Below are positions 6,819 to 25,867 of a stretch of DNA of 64,000 nt, in pieces; positions within the stretch are counted from its first letter, which is position 1, and each line of letters begins with the position of its first letter. The notes under the pieces were generated by a model. The model was not told the origin of the DNA, searched no databases, and worked only from the letters and a program-made list of their open reading frames with translations. Source of the stretch: Candidatus Nomurabacteria bacterium (GTDB lineage Bacteria; Patescibacteriota; Minisyncoccia; Phycocordibacterales; UBA9973); the NCBI GenBank assembly GCA_016699365.1, contig CP064973.1, positions 301,684 through 365,683 on the forward strand. Reading direction: 5' to 3'. The position numbers and the translations under genes are program-made.

Positions 6819-7928
6819 ATGAAATCCATAAAAAGTCTTGGAAATATAAAAGGTAAGGCGGTTCTCGTGAGAGTCGATTTCAACGTTCCAATTGAAGGAG
6901 ATAAAATAATAGACCCTACTAGAATACTAAAAGCTATACCAACAATTGAATATCTAAAGAAAAAAGGTGCTTTAGTAATACTGATTTCTCACTCTGATTT
7001 ACAAAAAGACACTCAAACACTTTTACCTGTAGTAAAATTTTTAAATAAACATATAAAAGTGCGTTTTATAGAAGGCGCGATTCCTAAATCTATAGATATA
7101 AAAAATGGAGAGGTGGTTTTATTGGAAAACTTGCGTCGATTTAAAGGCGAAAAAGAAAACGATCCAAAGTTTGCAAAAAGCTTGGCTCTCTTGGGTAGTG
7201 TCTATGTAAACGAAGCCTTCCCTGTATCACATAGAGCCCATGCGTCTATTGTTGGTGTGCCGAGATATTTGCCATCATATGTTGGATTTCAATTTGAAAA
7301 AGAAATCAAGAATCTATCTCTCATCCTTAATAAACCCAAAAGACCATTTTTGTTTATATTGGGTGGAGCAAAATTTGAAACTAAAATGCCTCTTATAAAA
7401 AAGTTTCTAAAAGATGCTGATAGGGTAGTTGTAACAGGGGCGCTTATGAACAACTTTTTTAAAGAAGCTTCTTTTGAAGTCGGAAGATCTCTTGTAGAAA
7501 GCGGAGATTATGGAATTAAAAAAATAATAAATAACCCAAAACTTCTTTTACCTGTGGATGTAGTAGTTACTGGTCAAGATGGAGGAAGACTTACTAAAGG
7601 TATCGATGAGGTTGGCAAAAAAGACAAGATTGTGGATATAGGAGATAGGATAATAAAAGAATTTGAGATTTTAATAAATAAATCTAAATTTGTTTTATGG
7701 AATGGTCATACTGGGGAGTACGAAGCTGGCTTTGACCATGGAACCATAGCTTTGTTGAAAATATTGGCTAAATCAAAGGCAAAAACAATAATCGGCGGAG
7801 GAGATACTGTTGCTCTCGTTTCTAAAATGAAAATGGAGGATAAGTTTTCTTTTATTTCAACTGGTGGTGGAGCCACTTTAGAATATCTATCTAAAGGTAC
7901 GTTGCCTGGAATTAAGGCTTTGAAATAA
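6819..7928 (+). CDS. pgk: Phosphoglycerate kinase
   Basis: N-terminal VRVDFNVP motif and C-terminal GGGDT...STGGGA motif; 369 aa, somewhat short. Confidence 0.85.
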   Translation: MKSIKSLGNIKGKAVLVRVDFNVPIEGDKIIDPTRILKAIPTIEYLKKKGALVILISHSDLQKDTQTLLPVVKFLNKHIKVRFIEGAIPKSIDIKNGEVVLLENLRRFKGEKENDPKFAKSLALLGSVYVNEAFPVSHRAHASIVGVPRYLPSYVGFQFEKEIKNLSLILNKPKRPFLFILGGAKFETKMPLIKKFLKDADRVVVTGALMNNFFKEASFEVGRSLVESGDYGIKKIINNPKLLLPVDVVVTGQDGGRLTKGIDEVGKKDKIVDIGDRIIKEFEILINKSKFVLWNGHTGEYEAGFDHGTIALLKILAKSKAKTIIGGGDTVALVSKMKMEDKFSFISTGGGATLEYLSKGTLPGIKALK

Positions 7929-7929
7929 A

Positions 7930-7956
7930 GAAAAAATCCGCTTTGCGGATTTTTTA
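7930..7956. terminator. Rho-independent terminator hairpin GAAAAAATCCGCTTTGCGGATTTTTT (copy 1 of an exact 27-nt direct repeat)
   Basis: ATCCGC/GCGGAT stem flanked by an A tract and a T tract; it lies 2 nt after the pgk stop codon. Confidence 0.7.
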
Positions 7957-8336
7957 ATTTGTTTTTTCTTATTACTTTTTTAAAAAAGTAATGCAAAAAC
8001 TTCTTTGGGTATATTAAAAATCTAGCTCACTACACTCAGGCTCGTTAAAAATATTAACTCGTTTCACTCAAACAGAATATTTTTTACTTCGTAACACTCG
8101 CCTTCGTGTGTTCGTAGACAATTTTTAATATAAGCCAAAGCTAGGACCCAAAGGATTCTGAGTTCTTAAATAACCCAATCCACACTTTCTAAAAAGCCTT
8201 GCGCAGGCGGGTAGCCGAGCAGAGCAAAAATCCAGCAGGATTTTATGCGTGCTTTTTAAAAGTGATGGATAAAATAAAAGTTTTCTAGAAACTAAGTTAT
8301 ATAAAACCACGAATGTGATATGGGTTTTGTATAAAA
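7957..8336. repeat. Structured intergenic element, copy A (homologous to the element at 15351-15700; candidate ncRNA or MITE-like repeat)
   Basis: It shares with copy B the 22-nt AT palindrome (ATTACTTTTTT/AAAAAAGTAAT), CAAAAACTTCTTTG, CTCG..TTAAAA.TATTAACTC, TCAAACAGAATA.TTTT and CG.AAC..TCG.C.TC.T. No plausible ORF. Confidence 0.45.
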
Positions 8337-8363
8337 GAAAAAATCCGCTTTGCGGATTTTTTC
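8337..8363. terminator. Second exact copy of the 27-nt terminator hairpin; acts as the terminator for the convergent minus-strand M23 peptidase gene
   Basis: Identical to 7930-7956; located 17 nt downstream of the minus-strand stop codon at 8380. Confidence 0.65.
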
Positions 8364-8379
8364 TTTTCAGAGTTTTTAT

Positions 8380-9447
8380 TTAAAATGGATTTTTTGCTCC
8401 ACGAATCTCGAAGTGCAAGTGTGGTCCTGTTGATCTTCCTGTGTTTCCGACAGCACCTATTACTTGTCCTTGGGTGACTGTTGCTCCCAAAGGAACAGAC
8501 ACTTTTGACATGTGTGCGTATAAAGTTTGAGTTCCGTTTGAGTGTTTTATAACCACATAACTTCCATATCCTCCACCCCATCCTCCTGATCTGGAAACAA
8601 TAACTGTTCCACTTGCTGATGCATATATTGGAGTTCCAACCGGTGCTGCAATATCTATACCGTTAAATCCATGAAGTCCTTGGGATTTTCTTCCACCAGA
8701 CAGTGGTCTGATGTAATAACCCTTCTGTTCAGGTGCACTCGTTCCCCAAGTTTTTTCTTTTTTACTACTAGAAGAAGATGTTTTGGTTGTTTTTGTTACT
8801 TTTGGTGCAGCTATTTCACCATCTGGTATAAGAAGTATTTCACCTGTTTTCAAAGATGCTGTTTCAATAATTCCATTAAATTGGGCTATTTCTTTTGCAT
8901 CCGCATTGAAATTCTTTGCAATACTAGATATTGTCTCACCCTTTTTAACAACATGTCTAACTCCTGTTATTGGCAGTATTGTTAACATCTGGCCTTCCTT
9001 TAGGCTATCTCCTTTTTTTAGATCGTTTGCCCACATTATTGTATTGGCAGAAACCCCATACATTTCCGCGATTGCTCCTATAGAATCTCCAGACCTTACA
9101 ACATACAGACTGATCTCGTCGCTTTCTGGGAAGTCATATTCTACAACGTCGGCTAGTGTTCCTAGTGGACCCACTTCAGATTTTAGAGCTCCGTCGCTTA
9201 TAGTTACAGTTTTCTCTATTAGAACTTGGTTTGGGTCTGGGCTATGATATGCCATCAAAATAGGCATTGTCTGTGAATTTTGCTCTATATTACTTGTCTC
9301 CGCATGTACTTCTGTTGTAGAAGATAGGCCAAAAATCGATAAAATATTGGCCTCTGTCCTAAGCGGGAATATGACGAAGGCTCCTATTATAGATATAGAA
9401 AAACAAACTTCTTTGGTAGGAAGCTTATTATATAAGGCTATTTTCAT
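8380..9447 (-). CDS. LysM-domain peptidase M23 (peptidoglycan endopeptidase)
   Basis: Signal peptide; two LysM repeats (YVVRSGDSIGAIAEMYGVS.., HVVKKGETISSIAKNF..); C-terminal M23 motifs HGFNGIDIAAPVGTPIYA and GRSTGPHLHFEIR. Confidence 0.8.
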   Translation of the reverse strand: MKIALYNKLPTKEVCFSISIIGAFVIFPLRTEANILSIFGLSSTTEVHAETSNIEQNSQTMPILMAYHSPDPNQVLIEKTVTISDGALKSEVGPLGTLADVVEYDFPESDEISLYVVRSGDSIGAIAEMYGVSANTIMWANDLKKGDSLKEGQMLTILPITGVRHVVKKGETISSIAKNFNADAKEIAQFNGIIETASLKTGEILLIPDGEIAAPKVTKTTKTSSSSSKKEKTWGTSAPEQKGYYIRPLSGGRKSQGLHGFNGIDIAAPVGTPIYASASGTVIVSRSGGWGGGYGSYVVIKHSNGTQTLYAHMSKVSVPLGATVTQGQVIGAVGNTGRSTGPHLHFEIRGAKNPF

Positions 9448-9801: not shown

Positions 9802-11616
9802 ATGTCAGAACAACCCCCAAAGGTTTCAGATATTAACCCAAGCCAACTAATAGCTTATTTGGATGAGCAAATCCTGAAGGATGTGGCAAACCATCTTTTT
9901 ATAAAAGCGAGACTAGAAAAGCCAGTAGCTGAATTTTCCAAGACCAAAGACCCTGAGTCTATAAGAAAGATACTCGTTATTTTAAGAGATTCTGGCAAAA
10001 TAACCAAAGATGAAGCCTCTTTGGTAGCAGATTCTTTCAATGAATATATGAAAATTCATAACATAACAGGATCTATTGATATTTCTGTTTCTGCAGAAAA
10101 AATTAAAAATACAGACAATGAATCTAGTGTTGATTTAGATGCCACCGAAGTTTTTACTGTCGGTGTTTTTAGTGCAGATGAATTGATGCAAGAAATTGAC
10201 AGTCAGATAGAAAAATTAAAAGTAGCAGATCGCAAGAAGATAAAAAAGATATTGGAGGCTTTTCAAGAAGGTGTTGTTAAGTCAGTAAAAAATGAGCTTT
10301 TGAAAAAAGTTAAATCAACTGATGAATCAACTGTAAACAAAATACTTTTGATTGTAGAAAAGTATCTTAAGACACATGATGTAGAAAAAAAAGAACAAGA
10401 AATTTCAGATCGTTCGGAAGTAAAAAACAAAAGACCAACAAAGGTGGTAAAAGATCTAAAAGATTTGGACCTCGATGCTATAGAATCAGAATCTCAGGAC
10501 GGAATACAAACAGAAAGTGCAGAAGAGCTTAAGGTGTTAGGGCAATATAACACCCTAGTTGATCTTGGTTGGACAAAAAAACAAATCAAGAGTTTTTCTG
10601 AACAAAGAAGAGAAGAGATAGCTAAAAGAGGCGAGAAAAATCCCAACAGTCCTAAATTTAAAGAAATTGTTTCAAGTGATAAAAACTTAGGTTTAAATGC
10701 AGACGCTATTTTCGATAGACTCACAGCTATTCTTGAAAAGGGTAGTCCTTATAAAGATTCTGATGTAAAAGTTTTCAGAGGAGAAAAATTCTTAGATAAA
10801 GACTCTGGGATGATATTTGAGGTTGTAGATACAATCCGTACAGAAGAAGATCCAGAAGGATTGGATGATTCAGAAAAGTTTGCTTACTACGAAAATCATG
10901 ATCAGGTTTTATTGGAAGGTCCATTTGATTATGAGACTGGTAAAAATATTACCAAAAAAATAAGCAACAGAGAATTTGCTGATTTAATTGCGAATGAATC
11001 TTTTGTTTCTACAACAGATAAAAATCCTGAAGTTACAGGAGGTTCAAACGAGGAAATTGATTCTCTGGAGGACGAAATAAATAGACTAGTGAAGCAACTC
11101 GATGGACTTAGGGCGCCAAAAACAAACAACGAGCGTTCTCTAAAAGAAGATTTACAAAAAGAAGTTTTTGAGAAAAGAAATAAACTAAAAGAGCTTGTGA
11201 GTTTAGAAAACAAAGATAGTATAATAGAAGGTAAAATAATGCGTTTTATAGAAAATGCAGGAATCCCATTTGAGTATGGAGATATTCTTTTACCTATAAA
11301 TGGTGGAAATGAATTCATAATAAAACACCCATTTACTGAATTTGAAGGTCAGACACTATATACTTATACTTATTACAAAATAGCCAGATATAATATAAAA
11401 AATCCACCCAAAGATATTCCTAAAAATAAACTAGAAGATTTTCAGTATTCTGAACGCAAAGATTTTAAGTCTGAAGATATTACAAAATACAGGGTAACAA
11501 AAAGAGAATATCTTGGTATACTTTTGAAGACTGTAGAAATAGAGAAAAATAAGATACAAGAAAAAAGAAACTTATTGGAATTATTAAAAGAAGAGATTAA
11601 AAAAAGGGATTTGTAA
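9802..11616 (+). CDS. Hypothetical 604-aa protein, highly charged (K/E/D-rich) with predicted coiled-coil segments, no TM segment
   Basis: Long ORF with coherent codon usage; no recognisable catalytic motif. Confidence 0.65.
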   Translation: MSEQPPKVSDINPSQLIAYLDEQILKDVANHLFIKARLEKPVAEFSKTKDPESIRKILVILRDSGKITKDEASLVADSFNEYMKIHNITGSIDISVSAEKIKNTDNESSVDLDATEVFTVGVFSADELMQEIDSQIEKLKVADRKKIKKILEAFQEGVVKSVKNELLKKVKSTDESTVNKILLIVEKYLKTHDVEKKEQEISDRSEVKNKRPTKVVKDLKDLDLDAIESESQDGIQTESAEELKVLGQYNTLVDLGWTKKQIKSFSEQRREEIAKRGEKNPNSPKFKEIVSSDKNLGLNADAIFDRLTAILEKGSPYKDSDVKVFRGEKFLDKDSGMIFEVVDTIRTEEDPEGLDDSEKFAYYENHDQVLLEGPFDYETGKNITKKISNREFADLIANESFVSTTDKNPEVTGGSNEEIDSLEDEINRLVKQLDGLRAPKTNNERSLKEDLQKEVFEKRNKLKELVSLENKDSIIEGKIMRFIENAGIPFEYGDILLPINGGNEFIIKHPFTEFEGQTLYTYTYYKIARYNIKNPPKDIPKNKLEDFQYSERKDFKSEDITKYRVTKREYLGILLKTVEIEKNKIQEKRNLLELLKEEIKKRDL

Positions 11617-11643: not shown

Positions 11644-14600
11644 ATGAGCGAAAAAGACCCAGGATTTAACAAACTTACTAAACAAGAGCTCCAAGATAAG
11701 GCAGACGCTCTTGAGAAAGAAATAGAGAAAGGCTCAGCAAATCTGGGTTCTTTGGAAAGCAAGATACTTGAAGCTCTTCAAGAGGATAAGATTTCTAAAA
11801 AATCTTCTAGTAAAAAGTCTGATACAAAAAAGCATAATACTAAGCGCGGAGGAAATACTCCAAAGTCTGAAGAAAAAAATGATAAAATAGAAAATCCTAC
11901 TCGAAAAGAAGCAAACGACTTTTTAGATAAAATAGTAGAAGGCACTCCTCTGTATTTTAATCAAACTAAAGAAACAAGAATTGTAGAAACTATCACAGAA
12001 AATAAATCAGGTGTAAAAACTTACAATCTAGATGATGGCTCTTCTCATACTGACAAAGCTTTGTTTTATGCTAGAACAGTTGGGAAAGTTGGTATAGGCA
12101 ATCTTGAAACAGAAAAAAATAAGACAAATACAAAAAGTGAAATACTTGATATTGGAGGTGGTATAAAAATCACAGCAGGACAAGAGTATGCAGATAGTGA
12201 CAGACCTTCCGTTAAGTATGAGATTGTTAAAGTAGAAAACGGAAAAGTTTTTTATAAAATGTCTGGTAGTAGAGCAGTTTCAAGTATGACCGAAGAAAAA
12301 ACTCGTAAGTTTTTTGAATCTAATCCAAACATGAAACTAGTTGGTCAAACATGGGAAGTTTCTAAATCTAAAAAAGAAAAAGATCCAAAGCCCGATACAC
12401 AAACCCAAGAAGCTCCTATTGGGGGTGTTTCTATGACAAAAGAGGGTGCAGATGCTCGTGTCGCTTCTCTTGCGATCGGAGATATATTGTACGGTGTTTC
12501 TGCAGATGAATACGCAGAAATTACAAATATTGAAACTAAGGGTAAGGGAAATAAAAAGAAAAAAATATATACACTTGAAAAACGTGCAAATGGGGAAGTG
12601 ATGACATATTCTGCAGCTGAATTGGCTGAAAGATTTTTACTTGGTAAGGTTGCGATTGATTCTTCGAGTGAATATATCGGAAAAATTGAAAAACCAGAAT
12701 ATGATATTGGCGCTATTAAAAATGCAGTAAATGATTTGGATATAGGTGCTGTGGTAAAAGGAAAAGATAGTGGAGAAGAATACACACTTATCCGATTGAT
12801 TACCGACAAAAATGGTAATAAGATTTTTGAATTTGAAAATAATAAAACTGGAGACAAAAGATCTGAGAGCGAGAGGGAGATGGTAAATTCACTTAAAAAT
12901 GATGCATTTGAAATATTGTCTACAAGTGGAGTCCAAGAATTTAAAGAACAGAAACCAGAAGATGTTTTAGCAGAAGAACAGAATGAACCTGCTGAGGAAA
13001 ATGCTAAAGAAACTAAAACAAAAGAACCAAAAATACAAAAAGAGGAAAAAGGAGTATCTCCTTCGGAGGATTTAACTACTGCAAGAGATGCTTATATGGC
13101 TAGTTACAGAGCTATGCTTGCTGAGCGACAGAGTGTAATGAAAGGAAAGAGAAATATATTTGGAAAAATATGGTCAAAAGTAGTGGGTGAAAAGATATCC
13201 AAAGAAGATCTTCCAGAAGACAATGCAAAATTAGTTGCATATGAACAAGCAAAGAAAGATTATGAAAATGCAAAAGTTGGATATGGAAATTATTTGTATG
13301 CAAAGAAGAAAGAGGATCTTGATAAAACTAAAATATCTAAAGAGAGCAAAGTAAAAGCTCTTGTTGACTATAAATCTGGAGAACTTTTCAAAAAACTCAT
13401 ATTAGATGAAGGAGATATTTTAGAGAAAGGAAAAATAGAGGCACTTCCAAAAAGAGAACAGGGGGTCTTATTAAAAGCTCTTCAGTGGTATGGAGAGGTT
13501 CAGCCTAGATACAAGCGTGTGGCACTATCAGTTCTAATAGGTACAGGTGTAGCAGCACTTTCTGCTGGAAGCTTAGCAGCTCTCGGTGGTGCGGCTATAG
13601 GAGTAGGTGCTCGTGTAGTGGGTGGAGCAATAGCAGGAGAAGCAGGCATAGGAATAAAGAGTCTCTTCTTTAGCCAGAAAAAAATTGATAAGGGATTTGA
13701 GAAAAGGAAAAAAACACTTGGACAAGGTTCTGGAGAGGGAGAATTTTCAGAGGAATGGTTGAAATCCCAAGAAGGTGTATTTGGTGCAGAATTGAAGAGG
13801 AAAAAGAAATTAGAAAAAGTAAATCGTTATATAAATGCAGGTATTAGACTGGGTTCAAGTGTTGGTGCAGGTCTTATGGCCGGACACTTTGCTGCTGAGA
13901 ATGCAAATGAAGGCACAGGTCCAGTAATTGATCACACTCCACCACCAGAACCAGAGATTGAGACTATAAATCCTCTTGCAACTGTTCAGCCTGGAGATGG
14001 TGTTGAGCATGTATTTATTCGCCAAATTGAAGCTGATCCAGATCTTGCACGTTCTATGGGTTGGGATGGAAATTCTAGTCTACATACTTTTGCTCAAGGT
14101 GAAGCACATAGACTGGCTATAAATACAGGATACTTCAACAATGGAACAGAGCTTCGACTTGGATATGACACAATAGGCCACTCTTCTTATGTTATTACTG
14201 AAATGCCAGATGGTAGTTTTGGTGTTAGAGAATTTATAGATGGAAAACTAATTGAAACTCATAGTGCTGGATCTCCTTTTGAAGCTACTCCAGATGAAAC
14301 AGAATATATTTATCATGGTTCAAGAAGCGGTGGAACATTGGATGCAGAACCAGATGTTTCTAGCTCTACAGATATCGGGCAAAATCAGATGGGTGGCACT
14401 ACCGATATACTTGATAGTGTCGGACAAAACCAAATGGGCGCGTCGGCTGCAAATGGTATAGACAATACTGTTCTTACTAAAGGCAATCAAATAGATTTGG
14501 GTGCTAAGAGTGGGGCACAAATGGGCGAGGTGGAAACAGTAGATGCTTCTGCTCCAGAAACCCCTGCTGCTACAACTGATGCTTCTGTAGGAGTAAATAC

Positions 14601-14982
14601 TCCAGAAGTTAGTGCAGACAGTCTTTCTTTGGAAGTTGATAAAAATACTACTGATTTTATAAATAAATACTTAGACAATAGTTCTGTAGAAGGTGTAAAT
14701 ACTAGAACATGGGAGATATGGCAAAGTTATCCTTCTGATTCAATATACGAGACGGATGAATTGGGTCGTATTACACATTCAATAAACTTTGATGGTAATT
14801 ATGAAGATACTCCTGGTCATGTAGTAGAAACTGCTTCAAAAGCAGATACAAGAGCAATTAATAATATGCTTGATGATATCGAAAAACTTGCCAACAAATT
14901 CGGGATTCCTCCGACAACAGGTCAAACACTTCAATCTTACATAGAAACTTTGCAAAAAGCTGAGATACAAAATGCAAAATAA
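11644..14982 (+). CDS. Hypothetical 1112-aa protein: charged coiled-coil N-terminal half, Gly/Ala-rich TM hairpin (residues ~625-675), Thr/Gly-rich C-terminal domain
   Basis: Long ORF; glycine-zipper-like hydrophobic segment VALSVLIGTGVAALSAGSLAALGGAAIGVG; short internal repeats GQNQMG. Confidence 0.65.
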   Translation: MSEKDPGFNKLTKQELQDKADALEKEIEKGSANLGSLESKILEALQEDKISKKSSSKKSDTKKHNTKRGGNTPKSEEKNDKIENPTRKEANDFLDKIVEGTPLYFNQTKETRIVETITENKSGVKTYNLDDGSSHTDKALFYARTVGKVGIGNLETEKNKTNTKSEILDIGGGIKITAGQEYADSDRPSVKYEIVKVENGKVFYKMSGSRAVSSMTEEKTRKFFESNPNMKLVGQTWEVSKSKKEKDPKPDTQTQEAPIGGVSMTKEGADARVASLAIGDILYGVSADEYAEITNIETKGKGNKKKKIYTLEKRANGEVMTYSAAELAERFLLGKVAIDSSSEYIGKIEKPEYDIGAIKNAVNDLDIGAVVKGKDSGEEYTLIRLITDKNGNKIFEFENNKTGDKRSESEREMVNSLKNDAFEILSTSGVQEFKEQKPEDVLAEEQNEPAEENAKETKTKEPKIQKEEKGVSPSEDLTTARDAYMASYRAMLAERQSVMKGKRNIFGKIWSKVVGEKISKEDLPEDNAKLVAYEQAKKDYENAKVGYGNYLYAKKKEDLDKTKISKESKVKALVDYKSGELFKKLILDEGDILEKGKIEALPKREQGVLLKALQWYGEVQPRYKRVALSVLIGTGVAALSAGSLAALGGAAIGVGARVVGGAIAGEAGIGIKSLFFSQKKIDKGFEKRKKTLGQGSGEGEFSEEWLKSQEGVFGAELKRKKKLEKVNRYINAGIRLGSSVGAGLMAGHFAAENANEGTGPVIDHTPPPEPEIETINPLATVQPGDGVEHVFIRQIEADPDLARSMGWDGNSSLHTFAQGEAHRLAINTGYFNNGTELRLGYDTIGHSSYVITEMPDGSFGVREFIDGKLIETHSAGSPFEATPDETEYIYHGSRSGGTLDAEPDVSSSTDIGQNQMGGTTDILDSVGQNQMGASAANGIDNTVLTKGNQIDLGAKSGAQMGEVETVDASAPETPAATTDASVGVNTPEVSADSLSLEVDKNTTDFINKYLDNSSVEGVNTRTWEIWQSYPSDSIYETDELGRITHSINFDGNYEDTPGHVVETASKADTRAINNMLDDIEKLANKFGIPPTTGQTLQSYIETLQKAEIQNAK

Positions 14983-15003: not shown

Positions 15004-15309
15004 ATGGATCAAAAATTACGTCAAACAATTATAAATGCATACAATCTCGGCTCTCTATCAGAAGATGAGCAAAATGATATTATCGAGCGAATAGGCTCAC
15101 TAATATTTCAAGGAATACTAATGAGAGTCATGGAGGATATGCCAGAGACTCTTCAATCAGAATTTGAAGAGATGTTAGATAAAGACGCATCTCCTGAAAT
15201 GATAATTGGCTTCTTGCGTGAAAATGTACGAGACTTTGAAAATATCGCAAAAGAAGAAGCTGAAAAATTTCAAAGAGAAAGTATGTCAGTGATGAGTCAG
15301 ATAGGATAA
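15004..15309 (+). CDS. Hypothetical small acidic helical protein (101 aa)
   Basis: Last gene of the 9802-15309 operon; followed by a terminator. Confidence 0.55.
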   Translation: MDQKLRQTIINAYNLGSLSEDEQNDIIERIGSLIFQGILMRVMEDMPETLQSEFEEMLDKDASPEMIIGFLRENVRDFENIAKEEAEKFQRESMSVMSQIG

Positions 15310-15321
15310 AAATATTTTAAA

Positions 15322-15350
15322 AGAAAAAACCCGCCCTGCGGGTTTTTTCT
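15322..15350 (+). terminator. Rho-independent terminator (CCCGC-CCT-GCGGG + T6)
   Basis: GC hairpin plus T tract 13 nt after the stop codon. Confidence 0.7.
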
Positions 15351-15700
15351 TTGTTTGTTTCTTTTCGTTACTTTTTTGAAAAAGTAACACAAAAACTTCT
15401 TTGCATATGACCCTGTGTATATTCACAAGACTCGAACTCATTAAAAGTATTAACTCCCCCACGGCCGCGGGGTCAAACAGAATACTTTTTCCTAACGGAA
15501 CATTCGTCCTCTTCTGTTCATATAAACACAGGGTCACAAGGCAAAGTTTGAATTCAAATACATCAGATGCCTGCCTTTTAAAAGACTAGCGAGCGTGGCG
15601 ACACGAGCCTGCCTGTCGACAGACAGGCTCGAGGAATTTTCTAGCAAGAAAATATCCGTACTTTTAAAAGGCAGGCATGAAGAATAGTTTTCCAGAAGCT
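15351..15700. repeat. Structured intergenic element, copy B (candidate ncRNA): two large stem-loop domains
   Basis: 5' core homologous to copy A. A 10-bp stem GACCCTGTGT(15409-18)/ACACAGGGTC(15527-36) encloses ~110 nt. A perfect 16-bp stem GCCTGCCTTTTAAAAG(15569-84)/CTTTTAAAAGGCAGGC(15661-76) encloses a GC-rich near-perfect palindrome at 15604-15631. Confidence 0.5.
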
Positions 15701-15784
15701 AAACTTTAAAAAACCAATTATAAAATTAAGGTTAAAAAAGTTTATATAAAAATTTATAGCTCGTATGTTATAGTCTATAGACTT

Positions 15785-17701
15785 ATGAAACATCTTGATG
15801 GTCTAAATGAAGCGCAGTTAGAAGCAGTTATTGCAACTGAGGGCCCTTTGATGATTGTCGCTGGAGCTGGTGCAGGAAAAACTAAAACTATTACTCACAG
15901 AATACTGGAGTTAATACATAAAGGCATAGATCCAGATAAAATTTTAGCTATTACGTTTACAAATAAGGCCGCAAGTGAAATGCGTGAGAGAGTAATGCAT
16001 GCAATTGGCGATATGAGACTATCGACCAAGCCTTTTATATCTACTTTTCATGCTCTAGGTGTCCATATTCTAAAAGAAAACGCACGGGAAGTTGGAATAA
16101 CAAGACATTTTACAATACTCGATGAGTCTGATGCTGTTTCGATGATAAAAGAATCTATTCGTGAAGAAGGTTTAGATCCAAAAGAACACGAGCCGAGAAA
16201 ATATAAATATGTAATCTCAAAAGAGAAGGGAGATTTTTTTACTCAAGAAGAATATGCGGCAAAGGTGGGGAGTGCGGCAGAGGAATTATATGCACGTATA
16301 TGGGCTCGATATGAAATAAAGAAGAAAAAAGAAAATGCTTTGGATTTTGATGATCTTTTATTAAAAAGCGTTTTACTGCTTAAAAAGAATCCCGAGATAA
16401 AGAAATCTTATCAATCTAGATGGAAGTATGTTCATATAGATGAATATCAGGACACAAACCAAGTCCAATACGAACTTTCAAAACTTTTAGTCGGCGAAGA
16501 AAGACATATATGTGTCGTAGGGGATACAGATCAGAATATATATTCTTGGAGAGGGGCAAATCTAAAAAATATGCTTAGATTTGAAAAAGATTATCCAAAT
16601 GCAAAAATAGTTTTTCTTGAGCAGAATTATCGTTCTACCAGTGTAATACTTGAGGCTGCAAATACTGTTATACAAAAAAATACTGTCCGCGTACCTAAGA
16701 ATCTCTTTACCTTAAAAGAAGGTGGAGAAAAAATAACCCTAAAAGAATGTTTTGGTGAAATAGACGAAGCGCATTTTGTTGCTGAAACTGCCTCTTCCTA
16801 TATACGTGACGGTGTAGAAGCTAGTGATATCGCTGTGCTCTATAGAGCAAATTTCCAGTCTCGTGTTATAGAAGAAGCTATGTTAGATATTGGTTTGCCT
16901 TACCAAGTTTTAGGTACAAAATTCTTTGATCGAAAAGAAATCAAAGACATGCTTTCTTACATCAGGGCTTCACTAAACAGAGATTCGCTTTCTGATATAA
17001 GACGCATAATAAATACACCTGTCCGTGGTATAGGTAAAACAACTATGTTGAAAGTTATGGCAGGTGATACAGAGAGTCTTCCTCCAGCTATGAAAGCAAA
17101 GATAAAAGTTTTTTATGAAAAGCTTGAGGCAATAAATAATTTTGCGCAGTTCAATGTGCCAAGTGAAATTATAAAATTTACTCTCTCAGAATCTGGCATA
17201 GAAGATGCTTATAAGGCTGGTACAGAAGAAGAGCAAGAAAGATTGGAAAATATAAAAGAACTTGTTACACTCGCAACTCGTTATGACTCGCTTGGTCCAC
17301 AAGAAGGTTTGGACGCACTCCTCACAAGTGCAGCTCTTGCGAGTGACCAAGACACACTAGAAGGAGCTGGTGCTGGTGTAAAACTTATGACAGTTCATGC
17401 GGCAAAGGGACTTGAATTTAAAGTTGTATTTATTGTTGGACTCGAAGAAGGTCTTTTTCCTCATGAGCGTGCAGGTCAATATAAAAAGACTGAAGAAGCC
17501 GAAGAGGAGCGTAGACTTTTCTATGTCGCGATTACTCGCGCAAAAGAAAAGCTCTATCTAACTTACGCTACAACTCGTACAATATACGGTATGCGTCAAA
17601 TAAACAGTCAGTCTAGTTTTATTTCTGATATACCTGCACATCTAATTAACTTCGAACAAGATGGCCAGAGCGGAATACTGAAAACTATTTTTCTTGATTA
17701 A
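15785..17701 (+). CDS. pcrA: ATP-dependent DNA helicase, UvrD/PcrA/Rep family
   Basis: Motifs AGAGAGKTKTITHRI (Walker A), LAITFTNKAA, IDEYQDTN and VGDTDQNIYSWRGA. Confidence 0.8.
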   Translation: MKHLDGLNEAQLEAVIATEGPLMIVAGAGAGKTKTITHRILELIHKGIDPDKILAITFTNKAASEMRERVMHAIGDMRLSTKPFISTFHALGVHILKENAREVGITRHFTILDESDAVSMIKESIREEGLDPKEHEPRKYKYVISKEKGDFFTQEEYAAKVGSAAEELYARIWARYEIKKKKENALDFDDLLLKSVLLLKKNPEIKKSYQSRWKYVHIDEYQDTNQVQYELSKLLVGEERHICVVGDTDQNIYSWRGANLKNMLRFEKDYPNAKIVFLEQNYRSTSVILEAANTVIQKNTVRVPKNLFTLKEGGEKITLKECFGEIDEAHFVAETASSYIRDGVEASDIAVLYRANFQSRVIEEAMLDIGLPYQVLGTKFFDRKEIKDMLSYIRASLNRDSLSDIRRIINTPVRGIGKTTMLKVMAGDTESLPPAMKAKIKVFYEKLEAINNFAQFNVPSEIIKFTLSESGIEDAYKAGTEEEQERLENIKELVTLATRYDSLGPQEGLDALLTSAALASDQDTLEGAGAGVKLMTVHAAKGLEFKVVFIVGLEEGLFPHERAGQYKKTEEAEEERRLFYVAITRAKEKLYLTYATTRTIYGMRQINSQSSFISDIPAHLINFEQDGQSGILKTIFLD

Positions 17702-25714: not shown

Positions 25715-25867
25715 AAAATTAGTAAAAATCCCCAAAGGGGATTTTTACTTTATAACCACATGCGTAGTATAGGTTGTGTATATAATAAAAAATCCCATTG
25801 ATTGTGATGGCATAGTATCTCTCTGTATAGTATCTAAAATCTTATAGAATTCTGATATAATACATAC

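Follow-up and report, generated by a model that had tools for sequence, protein, structure and literature searches.

A modular, palindrome-rich intergenic element of a Patescibacteria lineage as a candidate interspersed mosaic repeat with conserved hairpins

Within the 64,000-nucleotide stretch of a Candidatus Nomurabacteria genome analysed here (the window), the noncoding block at 15351-15700, upstream of pcrA, belongs to a family of intergenic elements built of modules that retain their hairpins through numerous compensated changes and vary in combination, orientation and locus among related genomes. The element adjoins, or supplies, intrinsic terminators between genes. We read the block as one copy of a modular, palindrome-rich, interspersed mosaic element of this Patescibacteria lineage, akin to BOX repeats and bacterial interspersed mosaic elements (BIMEs), whose hairpin modules fold in transcripts, and we assign this reading a probability of roughly 45%. 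It is ranked first because the modules combine variably, are gained and lost, flip in situ and form chimaeras, because wobble pairs are nearly absent, and because the element prefers no strand or neighbour and associates with terminators. A family of non-coding RNA (ncRNA) genes is the main rival, and a hairpin-DNA element mobilised in trans comes third. In what follows, the block under study is called copy B (15320-15717), its homologue in the window copy A (7926-8310), and L-numbers denote loci in other genome or metagenome records.

Copy B is placed on the pcrA strand between the DUF5663 gene (15004-15309), with its terminator hairpin at 15320-15352, and pcrA (15785-17701), while the neighbours of copy A are pgk (6819-7928) and, convergent to it on the minus strand, a LysM/M23 peptidase gene (8380-9447). 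The original prediction, made from the letters of the window, had taken the block for a candidate novel ncRNA from a two-copy family, homologous over its 5' ~170 nt to 7957-8130. The homology is real but spans the whole element of ~385 nt (15320-15717 against 7926-8310, by nhmmer with E-values of 1e-27 and 9e-22 and by alignment), and copy A is predicted to fold into the same architecture. Similarly, the count of two holds within the window, where no further copy or module was found, but many members exist elsewhere, modular and interspersed. The view that neither copy holds a credible open reading frame (ORF) stands: the copies differ by insertions and deletions of 1, 2, 3, 5 and 9 nt, so that the reading frame is not kept, and the mechanical ORFs of 50-83 aa in the block have no Pfam match. 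The element could be wrongly annotated as ORFs of 50-90 aa. A scan for tRNA and tmRNA found nothing, and a sigma-70 promoter scan returned no site at either copy. Look-ups of exact proteins gave no record for the PcrA or the DUF5663 protein of the window. Among the 4227 models of Rfam 15, none matched at the gathering threshold anywhere in the window, and on 20 related loci an unrelated tRNA was the only match, so that the Rfam comparison proposed earlier leaves both the window copies and their relatives without a family. Permissive searches (E up to 10 for both copies, up to 1 for 11 relatives) gave terminator-like or scattered weak matches, none of them recurring on the two large domains, D1 and D2, described below. 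The literature that we searched holds no description of such an element, and the family, which is uncatalogued, appears undescribed. For the cultured Saccharibacteria strain TM7x, a transcriptome paper reports no validated small RNAs (bioRxiv 10.1101/2022.03.25.485537). What endures of the ncRNA proposal is a conserved, structured, non-coding element unmatched in Rfam; its modules, however, invert, are deleted and recombine like repetitive DNA, which leaves a new RNA gene as one of two live readings.

The modular plan was derived by comparing the two window copies and six more that are full-length, taken from other records. In the orientation of copy B the order is Te, a T-rich linker, Pal, an A-tract, D1, D2, pal and, in most copies, a tail with GTGATATGGGTTAC. 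Te (15320-15352) is a G+C-rich hairpin terminator between an A-run and a T-run, bidirectional by sequence, which ends the DUF5663 gene and resembles the cccgcctctggcggg hairpin at the equivalent position of the element in relatives. Pal (15367-15388; a palindrome at 15362-15393 according to the repeat finder) is an AT hairpin of the form GTTAC-T6-G-A5-GTAAC, or GTTAC-T6-A6-GTAAC in the plan across copies, and the ends of its stem covary across the family (GTTAC/GTAAC, GGTAC/GTACC, GCCAC/GTGGC, GATAC/GTATC). The A-tract CAAAAACTT (15390-15398; AAGUUUUUG on the minus strand) is able to pair with 15687-15693, half of pal, in a helix P1 that would enclose D1 and D2; P1 is invariant in seven copies and thus has no support from covariation.

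D1 (15399-15546) is a long irregular hairpin with a basal stem CTTTGC/GCAAAG, followed by a hypervariable stem at 15408-15422 / 15522-15536 (TGACCCTGTGTATAT / ATAAACACAGGGTCA; 15 nt, 93% complementary by the repeat finder), which across copies measures 14-17 bp and differs wholly in sequence while complementarity is kept. The core of D1 lies at 15448-15484 and reads TATT-AACTC, a variable hairpin (CCCCACGGCCGCGGGG), then TCAAACAG-AATA, with 21 specified bases; as RNA, the apex forms an asymmetric internal loop, UAUU-AACUC, the variable hairpin, and UCAAACAG-AAUA. D2 (15567-15678) is a three-way domain closed by a stem that appears as UUUUAAAAAG in the plan. In copy B this stem had been put at 16 bp; it is indeed perfect and in that place, but comprises 18 bp (15567-15584 / 15661-15678, 100% complementary). 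Two hairpins lie inside D2, one of which (15633-15657) combines a conserved AGCA loop with a bulged A. The near-perfect G+C-rich palindrome that had been noted in D2 is likewise present (15604-15617 / 15618-15631; 28 nt, 93% complementary) and is an insertion private to copy B and its strain-level equivalents, being absent from 10 other D2 copies. The small palindrome pal (15686-15700, AGTTTTCCAGAAGCT; AGTTTYCYRGAAACT in the plan) is always abutted by the end of D2, and to the right of about this point the homology is with the native region upstream of pcrA in relatives without D1 and D2. The repeat finder located all stems of the proposed stem-loop domains in the places where they had been drawn.

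The description of the block as highly structured is amply supported by its folding energy, with z-scores of -7.6 for the plus strand of copy B, where 0 of 100 shuffles fold as well, and -9.4 for the minus strand. Covariation was assessed on seven distinct full-length copies, with 500 column shuffles and 3' partners slid by 1-3 columns as controls. Standard pairs occupy 96.6% of the 710 stem cells, and 41 of the 103 pairs are changed on both sides, compared with 19.6±2.7 in the shuffles, none of which (0/500) reaches 41; sliding the 3' partners gives at most 10 such pairs. Changes on both sides affect 24 of 35 pairs in D1 and 7 of 10 in the AGCA hairpin of D2, and the first pair of the 5-bp stem beside the D1 core is AT in 7, GC in 6, CG in 3 and TA in 6 cases (25 distinct members, several phyla).

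Such strong covariation favours the main rival, according to which the family consists of free-standing, trans-acting structured ncRNA genes of ~200 nt where D1 stands alone and ~340-380 nt here, and which we regard as possible rather than probable. An RNA of this type would probably be read from the window minus strand, with its ends paired in P1 (GGAAAAC/GUUUUUG) and with termination at the U-tract after D1 and/or Te, and a conserved protein or RNA would be the binding partner of the invariant D1 loop. However, gene conversion among copies, or correction templated by the opposite arm, could replace the two sides of a stem in one event, so that the counts establish the maintenance of hairpin potential, and do not by themselves prove selection on RNA. 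Pairs other than Watson-Crick make up only ~3% of stem cells, G-U and A-C being nearly balanced among them, and stems this close to pure Watson-Crick pairing are as compatible with upkeep of palindromes in DNA as with selection on an RNA. The earlier argument that conserved blocks are what a structured RNA should display is partly sustained: the hairpins are conserved, but their stems suit DNA palindromes equally.

The arrangement of the modules in different genomes shifts the interpretation from a simple ncRNA gene towards a mosaic repeat. The metagenome-assembled genome (MAG) CAZWJU01 has flanks collinear with those of the window at ~80-86% identity and bears the element at both loci, each time reversed with respect to the flanks. 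The D1 stem type agrees locus by locus, for which reason the copies look orthologous, while the two loci have exchanged their inner D2 types. At the site between DUF5663 and pcrA we found six arrangements among the window and its relatives: in L080 Te-Pal is joined directly to D2 and D1 is deleted; in L083 the orientation is flipped; L084 and L085 have two D2 modules of different inner type, head-to-head in inverted orientation, and no D1 (L084, 1073-1330); and L072-L075 have a 156-nt spacer only, a remnant in which the tail and an extended pal hairpin are left. Window positions 15687-15792 align with the right part of this spacer, and the tail of the flipped copy with its left part. Assemblies with the short spacer bear the element elsewhere, as in DALYDX01, where it follows RNase Y (L008) and is lacking between DUF5663 and pcrA (L073), and at the end of L076. 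Other rearrangements include an inverted partial Te-linker-Pal copy at the far end in L018, a chimaera of two D1 stem types in L006 and, in a MAG labelled Nomurabacteria (L002), an inverted D2-like fragment ~300 nt from a D1 that has no adjoining D2. D1 stands alone in the Cloacimonadota loci L003, L005, L015, L021 and L025, and also in L013, L031 and L039. The loss of D1 or D2 at a single locus would be odd for an RNA that needs both, and thus counts against the ncRNA-gene account.

At the level of strains the arrangement is uniform, since all 20 contigs (10 per locus) share the arrangement and orientation of the window, which excludes a rapidly switching inverton. An invertible promoter switch was rejected on the further grounds that orientation differs between species and that a search with one query protein found no recombinase homologue in the window or at other loci. 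Four short-read contigs from four samples (L078, L079, L081, L082) end ~30 nt after the DUF5663 stop codon, at the boundary of the element, which suggests that the element, as a repeat or as a long palindrome, breaks short-read assemblies at these sites, a point of practical importance.

All copies are intergenic, their neighbours are unrelated housekeeping genes, and their orientation relative to the genes beside them is random (upstream 13 same and 10 opposite, downstream 12 same and 14 opposite). This bears directly on the idea that the block is a cis-regulatory leader of pcrA, a riboswitch or attenuator, which might be drawn from the place of copy B between a terminator and the start of pcrA, on the pcrA strand. 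Besides the random orientation, copy A has convergent genes on its two sides and terminators at its flanks, the CAZWJU01 copy upstream of pcrA is inverted, and relatives have pcrA behind the 156-nt spacer with neither D1 nor D2. The leader explanation is in our view refuted, and we give it very little credence.

The distribution of the family was explored by an exact-pattern scan for the 21 core bases with a variable gap, over species-representative genomes (596 Gb) and metagenome contigs. The pattern occurs at 27 places in the genomes and 33 in the metagenome contigs, where the chance expectation for the genome set is ~8 (uniform base composition, 596 Gb, two strands, 31 gap lengths, 4^21). 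Nine matches fall in coding or unstructured sequence, and in the remainder the core tops a long hairpin. When built from 28 members, a covariance model separates the two kinds, with a bimodal distribution of scores in which true members align over the full length at 49-89 bits and chance matches over the core only at 30 bits or less. The true members come from the lineage of the window, other Patescibacteria, four Cloacimonadota MAGs, a MAG labelled Acetobacteroides (Bacteroidota), a MAG labelled Clostridium, and unassigned metagenome contigs; one 3-kb contig from Cloacimonadota has two copies. Outside the lineage of the window the unit is D1 without D2, and in most cases a Pal-like hairpin and an A-tract stand before it. 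The original prediction had allowed that, without homologues, compensatory covariation or transcription, the block would reduce to a local duplication of spacer DNA; homologues and covariation were found. A chance structure, or a local spacer duplication of no wider significance, has in its favour that the window holds two copies only, but it is refuted by homologues in many genomes and metagenomes, by the bimodal covariance-model scores and by covariation far above the controls, and we give it practically no weight.

The 21 specified bases of the core are identical in all family members found, and this invariance is partly a matter of ascertainment, since the pattern required those bases; a covariance-model search of 496 kb of sequence for a D1 with a variant core found none. 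The invariance of the D1 loop across phyla, together with the conserved unpaired motifs and loops and the bulged A of D2, supports the ncRNA-gene account, as does the long residence of copies at orthologous loci. A further point on the same side is a sub-group (L014, L020, L033, L042, L050, L051), a D1 sub-type without Pal, in which the ~125-nt interior is ~97% identical whereas the basal 15 bp differ with compensation. The records of this sub-type carry the labels Parcubacteria and Saccharibacteria, and its near-identity reflects one of three things: very strong constraint, recent transfer or mislabelled bins.

To which strand an RNA would belong is a question on which the evidence divides. 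Raw folding energy favours the window minus strand in 18 of 21 copies, but this is an effect of G+U composition, and z-scores controlled for composition are equal (-5.6 and -5.3). Comparison of G-U with A-C occurrences at pairs predicted on both strands favours the minus strand by 13:5 in window-type copies, while the totals over five groups are 13 for the pattern strand against 23 for the minus strand and D2 gives 4:5; we rejected these counts as weak and inconsistent, and loop composition as ambiguous. Several hints point to the minus strand and would suit an RNA gene on it: the core UUUGA-hairpin-GAGUU permits tandem G-A pairs beside the hairpin; GC-GNA-GC is a frequent form of the variable hairpin, for example GCGAAGC; a U-tract follows D1 in window-type members, in L002, L004, L030, L031, L035 and L038, and in Cloacimonadota members; L015, L030 and L039 have TATAAT boxes 3-12 nt upstream of the hairpin; and Te gives a hairpin and U-run on that strand. 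Set against these, the pattern strand has 35% A at unpaired positions, the more RNA-like composition, GCGA tetraloops in D2, and a U-tract after the hairpin in L020, L042, L051, L031 and L039, and the promoter-like boxes stand at positions that are not conserved among window-type copies. The RNA strand is thus not assignable, a point against the ncRNA-gene account, with at most a slight lean towards the minus strand. A perfect TATAAT is found on the minus strand at 15722-15717, ~16 nt upstream of pal and within the native pcrA-upstream flank of relatives; judged by its sequence, it could drive minus-strand transcription into the element.

A different explanation is that the structure matters in DNA, and that the element is non-autonomous mobile DNA, whose movement, in single-stranded or hairpin form, depends on a transposase or recombinase gene located elsewhere, on the model of a palindrome-associated transposable element (PATE) derived from IS200/IS605, of a repetitive extragenic palindrome (REP) with its REP-associated tyrosine transposase (RAYT), or of a site-specific recombinase acting at Pal and pal. 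The variation of presence, absence and orientation between genomes and the almost purely Watson-Crick stems agree with it. So do the layout of Pal in other lineages, with arms of 10-14 bp around a spacer of 3-7 bp as in a recombinase core site, and the TTAC that in L001 and L009 is found both at Pal's left border and where the tail ends. The large unit, moreover, lies to the left of pal in the window and to its right in CAZWJU01, with D2 adjoining pal in both, as would be the case had it inserted at a symmetric site. A tyrosine recombinase gene (Phage_integrase, E 6e-41) starts ~60 nt from D1 in L002, where the inverted D2-like fragment is ~300 nt upstream (L002 1131-1190, 1513-1703, 1765-2703); a tblastn search with one query protein, however, found no homologue of a recombinase near other copies or in the 64-kb window, and the neighbours are housekeeping genes. 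Copy A is bracketed by a direct repeat of the terminator hairpin T1 (29 nt identical, 79% identity over 58 nt of flanks), which would fit a target duplication, yet duplication is not consistent across the family: the two copies in L015 share exact boundaries and have unrelated flanks. An empty pgk-M23 site, by which a target duplication at copy A might be told from conversion, was not found, the relatives having ComM and not pgk beside M23. Neither are there terminal inverted repeats, and copies have stayed long at orthologous loci. BLAST against phage records and plasmid records gave no match, and four pattern scans of viral contigs gave nothing but one chance match (L028/L045, IMGVR_UViG_3300028392_000001), rejected for its 31-nt gap, its place inside coding sequence and the lack of a flanking hairpin or a covariance-model match. 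On balance we consider mobilisation in trans unlikely.

If the element is a mosaic repeat, as we prefer, it may persist and be reshuffled by recombination between its own palindromic modules, through inverted duplication followed by deletion, with no transposase encoded nearby; the inverted partial duplications in L018 and L084 would be plausible intermediates of the flips. Transcripts from either strand would fold into very stable A-tract/hairpin/U-tract structures that may end or insulate neighbouring transcripts, and the invariant D1 loop could be the recognition site of a putative conserved host factor. Several points weigh against the mosaic-repeat reading. The copy number is low for a classical repeat, at 2 per 64 kb in the window and at least 4 in CAZWJU01. 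Both window copies have counterparts at the same loci in a genome with flanks only ~80-86% identical, and the 20 strain-level contigs are identical in arrangement, from which it follows that the element is stable over long times and is not actively hopping. A perfect 21-nt unpaired motif across phyla, even if partly due to ascertainment, is more typical of a functional RNA such as an aptamer, a ribozyme or a protein-binding RNA, and the conserved AGCA loop and bulged A of D2 suggest, on sequence grounds, specific recognition. Finally, the role as terminator or insulator and the host factor are things that we infer.

Intrinsic terminators by sequence, with a G+C-rich hairpin followed by a T-run, are present at 15320-15352, 7931-7955 and 8333-8367, and the A-runs upstream make them bidirectional by sequence. 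One type of terminator hairpin (AAGAAAAAATCC..GG ATTTTTTCTT) recurs at gene ends in the window (7928-7958, 8335-8365, 15321-15351, 25720-25750), and near-identical terminator hairpins adjoin the element at different loci in relatives (L001, L006, L018). These recurrent hairpins may be a further small repeat module and not independent terminators. In copy A the left T1 hairpin (7927-7955), after pgk, occupies the position of Te and is followed by Pal (7971-7992), D1 (8003-8140, with the core at 8052-8079 and the variable stem at 8010-8021 / 8121-8132), D2 (8178-8270, whose inner region, called type ii, is unlike that of copy B), and pal with the tail (8278-8328; pal 8278-8294, the tail containing GTGATATGGG); the right T1 (8333-8367) is the terminator of the convergent M23 peptidase gene.

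The window has a G+C content of 36.6%, and its genes and their closest relatives place it in the Patescibacteria, or candidate phyla radiation (CPR). The taxonomic labels of the relatives' records disagree (Nomurabacteria, Pacebacteria/Paceibacterota and Saccharibacteria for near-identical or syntenic relatives): a protein identical to that of the DUF5663 gene (NCBI locus tag IPJ63_01790) is filed under Nomurabacteria and one with 99% identity under Pacebacteria (P0001, P0002), a syntenic MAG (L001/L009) under Saccharibacteria, and a 79% relative (L008) under Paceibacterota. Between copies A and B lie two large ORFs, 9802-11616 (604 aa) and 11644-14982 (1112 aa), neither of which matches Pfam at E up to 0.1; the second ranges in length from 1112 to 1291 aa among relatives.

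Patescibacteria genomes are tiny and densely coded. An uncatalogued element of ~200-400 nt that is kept at orthologous loci, with a core identical in unrelated anaerobic phyla, would if real as an RNA constitute a new functional class; otherwise it would be a new type of palindromic repeat, showing how reduced genomes shuffle terminator-like modules without transposases. One could also speculate that D1 by itself is such a new class of functional RNA, its invariant loop being catalytic (self-cleaving) or a site that binds a universal factor or ligand, and that Pal, D2, pal and Te are its vehicle, a proposal that we find doubtful; alternatively, the family could be a mobile module of a new sort, palindrome-templated and transposase-free.

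Among known systems, RNAs offer one set of comparisons. The large and medium-sized structured bacterial ncRNAs whose function is protein sequestration or is not known, such as 6S RNA, OLE, ROOL, GOLLD and raiA, share with the element a length of 200-400 nt, helices supported by covariation, conserved internal loops and possibly paired ends (P1), and the predicted fold of D1 is a rod-like hairpin similar in size to 6S RNA. Unlike them, the element has no Rfam match, is multi-copy and modular, flips in orientation and has few G-U pairs. 6S RNA is a rod of about 180-200 nt whose large central bubble imitates an open promoter. An identification with it was rejected, as no 6S model (RF00013 or related) matches at E up to 10 and at least 4 copies occur in one MAG, where 6S RNA has one or two per genome. 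On the minus strand CUGUUUGA, a hairpin and GAG recall the CUGAUGA, stem II and GAAA of the hammerhead ribozyme, with tandem G-A pairs possible; the hammerhead was nevertheless rejected, because only two strands are present (CUGUUUGA and GAGUU) with no third stem or cleavage strand, the equivalents of A6 and A14 are changed, and there is no Rfam match at E up to 10. Signal recognition particle RNA, RNase P RNA, tmRNA, group II introns, integron attC sites, the K-turn, the hairpin ribozyme and the single-strand and double-strand origins of rolling-circle plasmids were rejected as superficial resemblances of motif with no model match.

Mobile and repetitive DNA offers the other set. A MITE (a miniature transposable element with inverted repeats), for example of the Correia type, was rejected because the ends are unrelated (AAAAATCTACAACCCGCC... 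against ...GTGATATGGGTTAC), the L015 copies have no duplicated flank and a bracketing repeat occurs at copy A only. Measured against PATEs, the element has hairpins near both ends, no terminal inverted repeats, and TTAC edges in L001 and L009 that the window copies do not have. REP units are 20-40 nt long, are tagged GTAG or CGTC, alternate in orientation in BIME mosaics and have a cognate RAYT gene. Like them, the element is a mosaic of palindromic units between genes, near terminators, with inverted partial copies, and in REP/BIME arrays recombination between units brings about rearrangement; unlike them, its modules are 20-150 nt long and, on reading the sequence, carry no GTAG or CGTC tag, its copy number is low in the sequence examined, and no RAYT gene was seen in that sequence (the window and related loci, not whole genomes). 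Closest in kind are the modular intergenic repeats, BOX of Streptococcus pneumoniae, the enterobacterial repetitive intergenic consensus or intergenic repeat unit (ERIC/IRU), the Correia elements of Neisseria and the Rickettsia palindromic elements. With BOX- and ERIC-type repeats the element shares separable modules in varied combination, order and orientation, an intergenic and non-coding nature with no conserved ORF and no transposase inside, self-complementarity, and a place near terminators and gene ends. It has no sequence similarity to any of these four groups, so that the resemblance is of kind only; it is larger than BOX-type repeats (~380 nt) with far fewer copies per genome, lacks the terminal inverted repeats of Correia elements and, whereas BOX-type families are genus-specific, conserves the unpaired motif of D1 across phyla. 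The kind is known, whether as an intergenic structured repeat or as an orphan structured RNA, and what is new is the combination of a core invariant across phyla with a recombining modular cassette in the reduced genomes of the CPR.

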